DNA of 64,000 bases from assembly GCF_030013205.1 (NCBI RefSeq), contig NZ_CP122648.1; one strand, 5' to 3'. A program made the position numbers and the translations under genes. This document shows positions 47,100 through 49,287 of this stretch, piece after piece (the stretch's first letter is position 1; each line of letters starts with the position of its first letter). Origin of the DNA: Escherichia coli (GTDB lineage: Bacteria > Pseudomonadota > Gammaproteobacteria > Enterobacterales > Enterobacteriaceae). The notes beneath the pieces are model-generated. The model searched no databases. It was given only the letters and a program-made list of their open reading frames with translations, and was not told where the DNA came from.

Positions 47100-47591
47100 T
47101 TAAAGCAGACCATGTTCGGCAAAGGAGAAAACCTGGCTGCCACCGACTATCAGATGGTCCGGCACCCGGATATCCACCAGGCCCAGTGCCTGTACCAGAC
47201 GTTCCGTGATAAGGCGGTCTGCCTTGCTGGGTGTGACTTCACCGGACGGGTGATTGTGTGCCAGCACCACAGCAGCGGCATTGTGATACAGGGCGCGTTT
47301 AATCACTTCACGGGGATGGACTTCCGTGCGGTTGATGGTGCCGGTGAAGAGGGTTTCACCGGCAATCAGCTGATTCTGGTTGTTCAGATACAGCACCCGG
47401 AACTCTTCACGCTCCAGTCCCGCCATGTTCAGAATCAGCCATTCTCGTGCCGCACGGGTGGAGGTGAAGGCCACGCCGGGTTCATGAAGATGGCGGTCCA
47501 GGGTTTTCAGGGCCCGTTGAATGAGGCTGCGCTCGCCGGGCGTCATCTCTCCGGGCAGAAAGGAAAGCTGTTGCATTGTACTTCTCTCCAT
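47100..47591 (-). CDS. RadC-like JAB-domain protein (YeeS/YfjY/YkfG family of CP4-type elements)
   Basis: HNHPSG...E JAMM-like motif; about 160 aa. Confidence 0.8.
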   Translation of the reverse strand: MERSTMQQLSFLPGEMTPGERSLIQRALKTLDRHLHEPGVAFTSTRAAREWLILNMAGLEREEFRVLYLNNQNQLIAGETLFTGTINRTEVHPREVIKRALYHNAAAVVLAHNHPSGEVTPSKADRLITERLVQALGLVDIRVPDHLIVGGSQVFSFAEHGLL

Positions 47592-48077
47592 TCAGTCGAT
47601 GATGCGCATAATGGCGCTGCATTCCGGATGCTGCAGGGCGTAATCCCGCAGCCGGTAATAATGGACCGTCATGGCATAACACTCCGTACGACAGGCATGA
47701 TGACTGTACGTCATCAGACAGGCAGCAATGCCGGCAGCTTCCGGACTCATTTCAGCGCGGTTACCGTTCATGGCATTGAACAGTACCCATGTTTCGTCAT
47801 CATCGTCATCCGGTTCGGGTGCCATAAATGCCCCGCCGTTGTTCAGGGTGTACAGATTCCAGATACCACCGCAGTAGTCTTCACACAGACGGTCCATCCA
47901 GCCGAAGACACGGGGCTCCAGGGTCACCCACTGTGGAATGAGGCCAAAGTGCTGCGGCCAGAAGCTGATGCGCTGTTCATCAGGGACGAGGGTGGCAACC
48001 AACTGAGGCTGGTCATTCCCTGATGCAGCGGTTACGGAAACAGAAGATGTGGTGGAATTATGTGAAATGGTTTTCAT
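47592..48077 (-). CDS. Antirestriction protein (ArdB/KlcA-like, YfjX/YafX family)
   Basis: 161-aa acidic ORF (DDDDDE stretch, ...CLMTYSHHACR...), immediately upstream of and abutting the RadC-like gene. Confidence 0.75.
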   Translation of the reverse strand: MKTISHNSTTSSVSVTAASGNDQPQLVATLVPDEQRISFWPQHFGLIPQWVTLEPRVFGWMDRLCEDYCGGIWNLYTLNNGGAFMAPEPDDDDDETWVLFNAMNGNRAEMSPEAAGIAACLMTYSHHACRTECYAMTVHYYRLRDYALQHPECSAIMRIID

Positions 48078-48131
48078 GAAATGACTCCTTAAAGGACAAA
48101 TAAATGCGTGGTTTTCAGGGTAATGGCTGAA

Positions 48132-48950
48132 TCAGCGCAGGCTCTCCAGCAGGGTTTCCGCCATCACCCACAATGCGCGGTTGAGCTTAATGTCAGTGTC
48201 AATGCTGTGAATGGCACGGGTATGGATACGTTTTCCTTTAGCGCTGCGACCTGAAATTCCGCCTTTCAGCATATTCTCCTGAATGGTCTGATAAGCACTC
48301 CACAGGTCCTTACCGTAATCCTCCCGGCGTCGTGGCGTCAGAATGTCGGCGGTGGTGACGGGCTGATGTTCGTCACCATAACGGTAAGTCAGTGCCGCCT
48401 GTGCCAGCGCCTGGCGTGCCGGTGGCGGCAGAATCAGCGACTGCATGGCATCACGCTTTTCCTCAATCCGGTCAAACACGCCCACCACCTCGTAAGCCCC
48501 TTCAATGACTCTGTCCACCACATTTCCCCGGTGCGGAACACGCACTTCCCCCAGAGACTGACCACAGACGCATCCGTTCTGGCAGACGAACCTGAAGTAA
48601 CCCGGCAGCATCTGGTAGCTGGAGGTACCGTCATGAGAGTTGAGCAGAATAATTTCAGGGACATGTTCTCCGTTTATCTCTCCGGCCCGCCGCAGACGCA
48701 GCATGTGTTTTGTGTATCCCCGGCGGCCCGGGTCGCGCACACGGGTCTGGCAGGCGAAGAATGGCTGAAAGCCTTCCCGCTGCAGGCTTTCCAGTACGGT
48801 GATGGTGGGGATGTACGTATAGTTCTGGCTTCGGGACGTGTGTTTATCTTCCCCGAAAATCCCCGGCACATAGTGCATCAGTTCTTCGTGTGTCAGCGGA
48901 CGGTCACGGCGTATCTGGTTCGCATAACCAAAACGACTGGCTAGTCGCAT
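48132..48950 (-). CDS. DUF932-family protein (YfjQ/YafZ-like) of a CP4-type prophage remnant
   Basis: 272-aa ORF; the gene order DUF932, antirestriction, RadC matches CP4-57/CP4-6 modules. Confidence 0.65.
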   Translation of the reverse strand: MRLASRFGYANQIRRDRPLTHEELMHYVPGIFGEDKHTSRSQNYTYIPTITVLESLQREGFQPFFACQTRVRDPGRRGYTKHMLRLRRAGEINGEHVPEIILLNSHDGTSSYQMLPGYFRFVCQNGCVCGQSLGEVRVPHRGNVVDRVIEGAYEVVGVFDRIEEKRDAMQSLILPPPARQALAQAALTYRYGDEHQPVTTADILTPRRREDYGKDLWSAYQTIQENMLKGGISGRSAKGKRIHTRAIHSIDTDIKLNRALWVMAETLLESLR

Positions 48951-49049
48951 AATTTGCTCCTTATCGGTGGTTAAGATTTACTGGTGTAATAAATGAAAAA
49001 GCCACGTCTCCCGGAGAAGACGCGGCCTGATGGGTGAAATGAATGACGT

Positions 49050-49283
49050 TTATTGTCTGAGAAGACCGTCACTGGCGAGCCGCGTATTAAGCACCTTTCC
49101 GGCATCGGGTTCAGAATTCCGGCAGCGCCAGCGTCGCTGACCTTCCGCGTTGCGGATAACCCGACGGAAATGCATTCCCGGGTCATCCTGGATAAACACA
49201 TTGCGGTAAGCGGTTATGACAGCAACCGCCTGCCCGTATGAGAAAGATCCTTCAGCCAGGACATACTCTGTGTAACCCGGCAT
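49050..49283 (-). pseudogene. 3' remnant of an upstream island gene, truncated by the IS66-family fragment
   Basis: Frame is open up to the IS66-like end at about 49288; position corresponds to where a YfjP/YeeP-type GTPase gene sits in CP4 elements. Confidence 0.3.
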
Positions 49284-49287
49284 ATCT

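Follow-up and report, generated by a model that had tools for sequence, protein, structure and literature searches.

A four-gene block in an Escherichia coli chromosome is very probably the stranded core of a CP4-44-type island that decayed in place near leuX

The window analyzed here is a 64,000-nucleotide stretch of an Escherichia coli chromosome almost identical to those of pig ETEC/O139 strains (3 of 46,000, 1 of 22,001, and 0 of 6,432 positions differed from three overlapping stretches of ETEC1748). Within the leuX-to-nanS variable region, where homology to K-12 stops at the nanS stop codon (46107) and picks up again at 51860, next to fecI, four genes are packed on the minus strand in the order RadC-like, ArdB, DUF932, and DUF905, with intergenic gaps of 15, 54, and 99 bp. 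Genes placed here by a first-pass annotation of the sequence were all found where it had put them, on that strand, with Pfam family matches far above chance. That annotation had staked its assignment to the K-12 CP4 family on alignment with the yfjQ, yfjX, and yfjY products, and BLASTP aligned all three proteins over their full length. Antisense open reading frames across the block (47112 to 48023, 48366 to 48944, and others) matched no Pfam family, the four genes fit no PADLOC defense-system model, and a consensus scan of the minus strand from 46000 to 50000 found no sigma-70-like promoter. An Rfam scan of positions 45000 to 52000 (E ≤ 1) returned only two matches, both at chance level and both to families of eukaryotes; no RNA motif of the radC type was found.

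The RadC-like gene (47100 to 47576, minus strand) encodes a 158-amino-acid, stand-alone protein of the JAB/MPN metalloprotease fold. Its reading frame is open from 47100 to 47591, and the start at 47576 follows PGAP and the K-12 homologs. The protein matched positions 2 to 121 of the 121 in PF04002 (E = 1.5e-44), scored 149.6 bits against the NCBIfam model TIGR00608 (cutoff, 133.85), matched PDB 2QLC (E = 3e-25), and was 99% identical to YeeS, 82% to YkfG, and 78% to YfjY/LfgB in full-length BLASTP alignments. The metal-binding motif of the JAB domain, HxH...S..D, is intact (HNHPSGEVTPSKAD), and the metal-binding stretch can be read directly in the protein sequence (...LAHNHPSGEVTPSKAD...). 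Canonical chromosomal RadC is a different protein: the equivalog model for YicR (NF000642) gave a score of 159.8 bits, below its cutoff of 180, with only profile positions 88 to 211 of 212 covered, and YicR has an N-terminal helix-hairpin-helix part, whereas the block encodes a stand-alone JAB protein of the mobile-element type that lacks a full-length match.

By homology, the RadC-like product would be a JAB zinc-hydrolase-fold enzyme whose native substrate is uncertain. Its 78%-identical homolog LfgB degraded the antitoxin MqsA in vitro (PMC10846083), a result obtained with poorly soluble protein for which contaminating proteases were possible according to the authors (PMC10846083), and deletion of lfgB in K-12 caused sensitivity to H2O2, acid, and heat (PMC10846083). 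Others have predicted that RadC-type JAB domains process nucleic acids (PMC5512222).

The ArdB/KlcA-family antirestriction gene (47592 to 48077, minus strand) encodes 161 amino acids that match the entire PF03230 (Antirestrict) profile, positions 1 to 92 of 92 (E = 2.3e-37). The closest structure is PDB 2WJ9, ArdB from pathogenicity island PAI II of E. coli CFT073 (E = 2.8e-100), which is nearly identical to the block protein, with 2 substitutions across the last 137 residues, and differs in the N-terminal 24 residues or so. KlcA of IncP-1 plasmids (PDB 2KMG; E = 4.6e-21) is a clear homolog, and full-length BLASTP identities to the K-12 proteins were 69% for YfjX and 67% for YafX. CFT073 ArdB, YafX, and YfjX all relieved type IA to ID restriction in vivo (PMC2836571). 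Judging from these homologs, the allele in the block would also counter type I restriction in vivo, acting indirectly rather than through DNA mimicry.

The DUF932 gene (48132 to 48950, minus strand) encodes a 272-amino-acid protein that matches the full PF06067 profile (E = 7.4e-52) and is 75% identical to both YfjQ and YafZ over its full length. Compared with other family copies, its dN/dS was 0.06 to 0.08. A sequence search of the PDB found no solved relative, a literature search found no functional study, and an AlphaFold2 model built from a five-sequence alignment (pLDDT, 47; pTM, 0.44) was below the quality needed for a fold search. Upstream lies a complete DUF905 gene (49050 to 49283, minus strand; 77 amino acids), which matches positions 2 to 68 of 70 in PF06006 (E = 9.5e-18) and is 46% identical to YkfF. 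This open reading frame had been described as a short 3' remnant; its profile span and its accession, WP_001119729.1, identical to that of the protein in the undamaged island of strain ZYB39, show instead that the gene is full length. A terminator-like hairpin with a 13-bp stem followed by a T-run lies just 3' of DUF905 (48999 to 49028, minus strand; consensus scan). On the other side, only 4 to 6 bp of native sequence is left upstream of DUF905, with family homology ending at 49289. Because the end of an insertion sequence sits 4 bp from the start codon, the native promoter and ribosome-binding site of DUF905 are gone.

That insertion sequence is an internally deleted, hybrid IS66-family remnant (49288 to 49809, plus strand), bounded by terminal inverted repeats (GTAAGCG/CGCTTAC) in which positions 49288 to 49314 pair with 49783 to 49809. 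It consists of an approximately 70-bp ISCro1-like end (49288 to 49359), the 3' portion of tnpC from a different IS66 element (49360 to 49772), and the right end of the latter element. ISCro1 matches covered positions 36 to 122 of the query at the IS66 junction, BLAST homology to the tnpC interior in three related loci (L002, L003, and L005) begins at 49360, and Pfam (DDE_Tnp_IS66 and IS66_C) places the transposase fragment at 49311 or 49359 to 49772. The first-pass annotation was thus right that the upstream side had been cut by an IS66-family fragment, and this remnant abuts DUF905. It was also right that the GTPase end is missing, since the annotation of a near-identical genome has no GTPase, Ag43, or integrase adjoining the block. 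CP4-type elements carry a YeeP/YfjP/YkfA-type GTPase upstream (with Ag43 in the CP4-44 type), and neither is annotated within the 64-kb region.

Beyond the IS66 remnant are a phytase-like esterase gene (50011 to 51369, minus strand; PF13449, E = 4.6e-43), which is island cargo in relatives and in strain EC24 lies between IS66 and the integrase, and an IS3-family transposase fragment (51651 to 51782, plus strand; PGAP annotation of the near-identical genome) that marks where the island remnant ends on its integrase-proximal side. BLAST end points place the limit of synteny with the EC24 island at 51825 and the start of K-12 fec homology at 51860.

The radC-distal end was mapped by comparison with JNEC-KY180 (locus L002). 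BLAST matched the window up to 47046 to L002 up to 7047, and the window from 47045 to L002 from 9963, defining a lineage-specific 2,917-bp deletion whose junction (47045 to 47046) carries a 2-bp microhomology, TA. Native sequence 3' of radC is retained for 53 bp (47047 to 47099). The deletion removed DUF987, the YeeU/CbeA antitoxin, the CbtA toxin, DUF5983, DUF957, DUF4942 and helix-turn-helix fragments, and the leuX' att repeat, which lies at 7417 to 7570 of loci L003 and L002. In relatives, both the leuX 3'-end repeat and the integrase-proximal arm are inside the segment deleted here. The reported absence of a CbeA/CbtA toxin-antitoxin pair after radC is therefore borne out by the deletion mapped against EC24 and JNEC-KY180 and by the near-identical genome, in which no CbtA or CbeA is annotated. 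Directly 3' of radC, CP4-type elements have DUF987 and the CbtA/CbeA type IV pair, both missing from the block, and matches between the window and the leuX region did not exceed 11 nt, so a flanking att repeat is missing as well.

Illegitimate deletion at the 2-bp microhomology would explain how this end of the island was lost together with the toxin-antitoxin pair and the leuX' repeat. Deletion through longer homology, suggested by other genomes aligning 14 bp further left, was rejected as a gapped-alignment artifact of patchy similarity, and deletion between TAGTGG repeats was rejected on the grounds that its predicted product differs from the observed sequence.

An older junction, which had cut a restriction endonuclease gene, lies just 4 bp outside the left breakpoint. 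A 5' fragment of about 48 codons from this gene (46899 to 47042, plus strand) matches positions 2 to 46 of the 284 in NF045808, a model for phosphorothioated-DNA-binding restriction endonucleases. The gene is intact in E2348/69 (290 amino acids), and homology to it ends at position 47042 of the window, placing the old truncation at 47042|47043. Treating the truncation and the 2,917-bp deletion as one event was considered and rejected, with the two junctions 4 bp apart and TGTA common to both. Such closeness is not predicted by random illegitimate deletion, and this position could be an unrecognized recombination hotspot.

Next to the fragment is an HNH endonuclease gene (46112 to 46762, minus strand; 216 amino acids), a neighbor outside the CP4-like element with a weak Pfam HNH match and weak PADLOC matches to models of type IV methyl-directed restriction enzymes. 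It had been read as standing in place of the toxin-antitoxin pair, a reading contradicted by its presence beside nanS in strains that keep the toxin-antitoxin module; EC24, JNEC-KY180, AST19, and E2348/69 all have it at the same position. The HNH gene is part of an older defense-island remnant (HNH, phosphorothioated-DNA restriction endonuclease, and McrBC) that is intact in E2348/69.

In EC24 and JNEC-KY180, the same island occupies the interval between nanS and leuX, with radC followed by DUF987, YeeU/CbtA, DUF5983, and DUF957; in EC24 it further includes a fragment of Ag43, a complete IS66, and a pseudo-integrase abutting leuX. As first noted, no tRNA gene stands beside the island in the window, and an ARAGORN search of all 64 kb found none. 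CP4-type elements have a P4-family tyrosine integrase next to a tRNA or tmRNA gene, and no integrase is annotated in the window. The leuX gene lies at window-equivalent positions 72294 to 72378, about 8 kb past the window end, with the fec segment and an additional island in between; in the near-identical genome it is 23 kb to the right of the block, beside a different integrase. The block itself (2.25 kb, at least 80% query coverage) was present in 4,323 of 5,426 complete genomes, about 80%, with a median copy number of 3 per genome. Each of its two junctions was far rarer: the toxin-antitoxin-end junction occurred in 14 of the 5,426 genomes and the IS66 junction likewise in 14, all of them pig ETEC/O139, and these carriers were 100% identical across the block and 99.9 to 100% identical across a 6-kb query. 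The 14 genomes probably hold other copies of the block as well, at 2 to 3 places per record.

Taken together, these features make it very probable that the four-gene block is the core of a CP4-44-type integrative island that integrated at tRNA-Leu leuX, decayed in situ, and was left stranded and immobile. What survives is four intact genes (DUF905, DUF932, ArdB, and the RadC-like JAB gene) and the phytase-like esterase cargo gene. Loss of the radC-distal end by microhomology would have been matched at the other end, the site of Ag43 and the GTPase in fuller copies, by deletion between two IS66-family elements. In this lineage, an additional island and the fec segment now lie between the block and the integrase/leuX edge. 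For the direction of these events, EC24 and JNEC-KY180 were taken as ancestral-like on grounds of parsimony. In this chromosome, the block is probably a clonally inherited passenger.

The first-pass annotation had left open whether the island was a relocated or a decayed copy, and decay in place is the part that held. Relocation would mean that a CP4-like piece moved to a non-tRNA site by IS66-mediated transposition or recombination, and the lack of a tRNA gene in the window, the IS66-family ends directly adjoining the block, and the multicopy nature of the family (the median of 3 per genome) would all fit such a move. It is nevertheless very improbable, given that EC24, JNEC-KY180, and AST19 carry this island in the matching nanS-proximal slot with both flanks 99.9 to 100% identical, that the EC24 island reaches directly to leuX with an integrase, and that leuX is 23 kb from the block in the near-identical genome. 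The IS66 remnant is also one-sided and internally deleted, so no composite transposon surrounds the block. Even harder to credit is a P4-like satellite prophage remnant with genes serving a phage life cycle. In its favor are the name that these elements have long carried and the P4-family integrase of relatives; against it, the fuller copies inspected contain no capsid, tail, lysis, or phage-replication genes, a search of 50,697 phage records returned one unannotated 3.2-kb match, and homologs abound in the leading regions of conjugative plasmids.

An alternative to a passively decaying remnant is a domesticated minimal module, in which ArdB and the RadC-like enzyme, perhaps along with DUF932 and DUF905, were kept under selection for the host after the toxin was lost, with possible benefits in stress-response control through an LfgB-like protease or in easier uptake of foreign plasmids. 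All four reading frames are intact and full length, the family is under purifying selection (dN/dS, 0.06 to 0.17), loss of lfgB sensitizes K-12 to H2O2, acid, and heat, and the deletion stops 7 to 9 bp before the DUF987 start codon with radC untouched. Such selection is nonetheless unlikely: the 14 carriers are virtually identical, so the genes may be intact simply because decay has had little time to act; purifying selection was estimated by comparing mobile-island copies with one another rather than for the present copy; the native upstream signals are gone; and the probable other copies in the same genomes could make this one redundant. A more specific version, that selection in pig ETEC/O139 favored losing the toxin-antitoxin genes while keeping ArdB and RadC exactly, with constitutive expression from the IS66 neighborhood weakening type I restriction by the host cell itself or rewiring antitoxin turnover, is quite improbable. 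If it were true, acquisition of virulence and resistance plasmids would be favored.

Under decay in place, the biology of the block is already known: it is an unremarkable, immobile remainder of a genomic island that is very common in E. coli, ranks among the commonest accessory modules of the species, and has little import beyond correct annotation. Its best-understood gene, ardB, was already characterized from a nearly identical allele. The locus is a worked example of how tRNA-linked islands accumulate at leuX and erode by microhomology-mediated and IS66-associated deletions, and its two junctions are possible lineage markers for the pig ETEC/O139:H1 clone.

Islands of the CP4-44 type, with P4-family integrases, have historically been named "cryptic prophages," and the first-pass annotation used the prophage label. 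That label is weak here, as phage records almost entirely lack the block (only the one unannotated record matched among the 50,697), neither the window nor the fuller relatives inspected contain phage structural, lysis, or replication genes, and homologs occur in plasmid leading regions. "Cryptic prophage" is a poor label where conserved genes resemble those of plasmid leading regions. At least 5,000 plasmid records, of which 4,458 were conjugative, matched with DUF932 homologs 62% identical to the block protein. In the IncF plasmid pKF3-70, DUF932 and DUF905 homologs sit between oriT/traM and ssb/psiB, and thousands of other plasmids likewise have them in the oriT-proximal part of the leading region. 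By homology and position, DUF932 and DUF905 are thus leading-region-like, being homologs of the genes that IncF plasmids transfer first, and the four-gene set would most plausibly be an entry or establishment module of horizontally transferred DNA. The IncF leading region (oriT, DUF932, DUF905, ssb, psiB/psiA) has its homologs in the oriT-proximal position, whereas the block is chromosomal, and no oriT, relaxase, ssb, or psiB was found nearby.

Among the K-12 elements, CP4-57 (yfjQ...yfjX-yfjY-ypjJ-yfjZ-ypjF) and CP4-6 (yafZ...ykfF-yafX-ykfG-ykfH-yafW-ykfI) have gene families homologous to those of the block, with identities of 75% for DUF932, 67 to 69% for ArdB, 78 to 82% for RadC, and 46% for DUF905. 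The proposal that DUF932, ArdB, and RadC form the conserved CP4 core is correct for these families, but the tight DUF905-DUF932-ArdB-RadC order is not that of K-12 CP4-57, CP4-6, or CP4-44; it is the commonest E. coli version. In CP4-57 and CP4-6, which lie at ssrA and thrW with integrases, several genes separate DUF932 from ArdB, and ArdB-RadC opens an operon that runs into DUF987 and the toxin-antitoxin pair, whereas the operon in the block is cut right after radC. The nearest RadC-like relative is in CP4-44 (yeeP-flu-yeeR-yeeS-yeeT-cbeA-cbtA-yeeW), where YeeS is 99% identical. K-12 CP4-44 has neither DUF932 nor ArdB, with yeeR replacing DUF905-DUF932-ArdB, and it occupies a different chromosomal site, beside cobU, where it has kept its toxin-antitoxin pair; the block has lost that pair along with Ag43, the GTPase, and the integrase. 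Relatives at the leuX-nanS locus share the CP4-44 order, with an Ag43 fragment upstream and DUF987-CbeA-CbtA downstream.

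Four tightly spaced genes on the minus strand, each covering its profile end to end in the ORF list and Pfam scan, make up the block: a RadC-like JAB gene (47100 to 47576; PF04002, E = 1.5e-44), an ArdB/KlcA-family antirestriction gene (47592 to 48077; PF03230, E = 2.3e-37), a DUF932 gene (48132 to 48950; PF06067, E = 7.4e-52), and a DUF905 gene (49050 to 49283; PF06006, E = 9.5e-18, profile positions 2 to 68 of 70). These genes, along with the HNH ORF and the IS66 fragment on either side of them, were all present where the first-pass annotation had placed them. What had been called a 3' ORF remnant at 49050 to 49283 is instead the complete DUF905 gene, based on profile coverage and on a RefSeq protein accession shared with the copy in the undamaged island of strain ZYB39. 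The RadC-like ORF is open to 47591, with PGAP and the K-12 homologues using the start that yields 158 aa. Long antisense ORFs across the block matched no family, and Rfam returned no credible RNA family match. Directly downstream of DUF905, a hairpin with a 13-bp stem followed by a T-run (48999 to 49028, minus strand) looks like an intrinsic terminator; it would split DUF905 from DUF932, so that any DUF932 promoter would have only about 48 bp to occupy. A consensus scan of 46000 to 50000 found no sigma-70-like promoter on the minus strand.

Megablast identified the window as E. coli chromosome, differing from the near-identical pig ETEC genome ETEC1748 at 3 of 46,000, 1 of 22,001, and 0 of 6,432 positions in three overlapping stretches. 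The ETEC1748 gene order is fimB, IS2, nanC, nanM, nanS, the HNH gene, a fragment of a phosphorothioated-DNA restriction endonuclease, RadC, ArdB, DUF932, DUF905, the IS66 fragment, a phytase-like esterase gene, an IS3 fragment, fecIRABCDE, IS remnants, a further island with its own integrase, and tRNA-Leu leuX. In that genome leuX lies at window-equivalent 72294 to 72378, about 8 kb past the window end, and ARAGORN found no tRNA within the 64-kb window, in agreement with the earlier remark that none adjoins the island there. Homology to K-12 breaks off at the stop codon of nanS (46107) and restarts at 51860 beside fecI, so that 46108 to 51859 occupies a variable slot, filled in K-12 by yjhU through yjhR. 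The suggestion that the island might be a relocated copy was rejected, because this island occupies the same position, between nearly identical flanks, in E. coli strains JNEC-KY180 and EC24; decay of the block took place in situ, within a composite leuX island.

Three other features of the window were recorded. RefSeq lists the nanS of this lineage (45124 to 46104) as a pseudogene with an incomplete C terminus, but the ORF is uninterrupted, equal in length to the EC24 nanS annotated as intact, and two substitutions apart from it; the pseudogene call is probably an artefact of annotation. Relative to K-12, the fimB-nanC interval carries an inserted IS2 copy (41631 to 42961) that shares 99.7% identity with K-12 IS2K. 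The yjiA-mdtM interval (11160 to 12784) holds a BrnT/BrnA toxin-antitoxin pair, an IS1 pseudogene, and a dienelactone hydrolase fragment. In K-12 the same interval is the site of the mcrBC-hsdRMS-mrr "immigration control region," which the window strain thus appears to lack here.

In JNEC-KY180 and EC24, radC is followed by DUF987, the YeeU/CbeA antitoxin, the CbtA toxin, DUF5983, and DUF957, then by fragments of DUF4942 and HTH genes, a restriction endonuclease fragment, and the HNH gene. BLAST breakpoints against JNEC-KY180 (locus L002), where the window to 47046 matched L002 to 7047 and the window from 47045 matched L002 from 9963, indicate a 2,917-bp deletion in the window lineage with a 2-bp (TA) overlap. 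The deletion, seen against both JNEC-KY180 and EC24, accounts for the previously noted absence of the CbeA/CbtA pair after radC. It stops 7 to 9 bp before the DUF987 start codon, and 53 bp of sequence downstream of radC survive. Also lost with the segment was a degenerate leuX 3'-end copy together with about 120 bp of integrase-proximal arm (L003/L002 7417 to 7570, L003 being the EC24 locus). That copy represents the distal att repeat of the island, at which an older tandem island begins, and the window retains no leuX repeat. Of 5,426 genomes, 14 carry the deletion junction, and every one of these is a pig ETEC/O139 isolate.

The first-pass annotation read the HNH gene as standing in place of the toxin-antitoxin pair, but HNH lies beside nanS in the pair-bearing JNEC-KY180 and EC24 as well. 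The intact HNH ORF (46112 to 46762; 216 aa; Pfam) encodes a protein weakly resembling type IV methyl-directed restriction enzymes, and with the endonuclease fragment it adjoins nanS in all comparators. In EPEC E2348/69 a defence island (L013 3413 to 8343; L015) is intact between nanS and leuX; it includes HNH and an intact endonuclease gene (290 aa), the latter followed toward leuX by McrC/McrB-family genes, DUF4942, a type I R-M system, and an integrase. Thus, the HNH gene and endonuclease fragment (46112 to 47042) are what remains of an older defence island. The window and the comparators lose homology to the intact endonuclease gene at the same base (window 47042, L002 7043), and both read TGTA after it before diverging, so the 2,917-bp deletion begins just 4 bp inside the older junction. 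The sides of the deletion are joined by patchy similarity alone (TTTTC...TAGTGG), and no repeat or IS end was found to account for the near-coincidence of old and new junctions at 47042 to 47046.

Upstream, family homology of the block ends at 49289. A terminal repeat (GTAAGCG...) from 49288 pairs with ...CGCTTAC at 49783 to 49809, the first ~70 bp match the end of ISCro1, and the stretch from 49360 onward is the 3' portion of another IS66 tnpC, one also found in JNEC-KY180, EC24, and strain AST19; Pfam places the transposase fragment at 49359 to 49772. Judged from these matches, the element is an internally deleted hybrid IS66 remnant, bearing out the earlier view that an IS66-family fragment cuts this side. 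Because the remnant lies 4 bp from the DUF905 start codon, DUF905 has no native promoter or ribosome-binding site. Past the corresponding point, EC24 carries an Ag43 fragment, a zinc-ribbon fragment, and a full IS66. Independent decay of this island is seen in other strains: JNEC-KY180 has DUF932 truncated by a full IS66 (L002 11050 to 11788), AST19 has lost the whole DUF905-to-DUF957 segment (L005 7952 to 8061), and W13-16 has an extra IS66 copy within the island region. The IS66 junction was found in the same 14 genomes as the toxin-antitoxin-end junction, and the arrangement is confined to a single clonal lineage associated with pigs. These carriers are 100% identical over the block and 99.9 to 100% over a 6-kb query (megablast). 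Copies across the family have dN/dS values of 0.06 to 0.17, placing the family under purifying selection, a result that says nothing about selection at the window copy because the 14 carriers are virtually identical.

At least 5,000 plasmid records contain a DUF932 homologue of about 62% identity, and 4,458 of these plasmids are conjugative. IncF plasmid pKF3-70 carries DUF932 and DUF905 in its leading region, between oriT/traM and ssb/psiB; its DUF932 homologue (L010 9001 to 9822, 62%) is the leading-region gene nearest oriT/traM, and its DUF905 gene adjoins ssb. Among 50,697 phage records, the block matched just one, of 3.2 kb and unannotated. Given the plasmid homologues and near-absence from phage records, the gene set is read, by inference from homology and position, as a module for the entry or establishment of transferred DNA and not as a set of phage genes.

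The ArdB protein, homologous to KlcA, is nearly identical to the crystallised CFT073 pathogenicity-island ArdB (2WJ9; E = 2.8e-100), with two substitutions in the last 137 residues. CFT073 ArdB, YafX, and YfjX relieved type IA to ID restriction in vivo, and EcoKI was not inhibited in vitro (PMC2836571). The RadC-like protein is a stand-alone JAB domain with the motif HNHPSG...D, lacking the N-terminal part of canonical RadC. Its CP4-57 homologue LfgB was reported to degrade the MqsA antitoxin in vitro and to confer protection from stress by oxidants, acid, and heat, with protein-purity caveats in the same study (PMC10846083); an alternative prediction for RadC-type JAB proteins is a nucleic-acid-processing role (PMC5512222). 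An AlphaFold model of DUF932 from a shallow alignment was unusable (pLDDT 47).

The RadC-like protein is 99% identical to YeeS (CP4-44), 82% to YkfG (CP4-6), and 78% to YfjY/LfgB (CP4-57); ArdB is 69% identical to YfjX and 67% to YafX, DUF932 75% to both YfjQ and YafZ, and DUF905 46% to YkfF. Alignment of the three proteins to the CP4 yfjQ, yfjX, and yfjY families at 67 to 99% identity upholds the CP4-like core reading of the first-pass annotation, while its label "prophage" is a misnomer. Of 5,426 complete genomes, 4,323 carry the 2.25-kb block at 80% coverage or more, typically at several sites (median, three per genome). None of the K-12 CP4 elements shows the window's gene order, which is the predominant arrangement in E. 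coli; the element is of a well-known kind, in an unremarkable state of decay.
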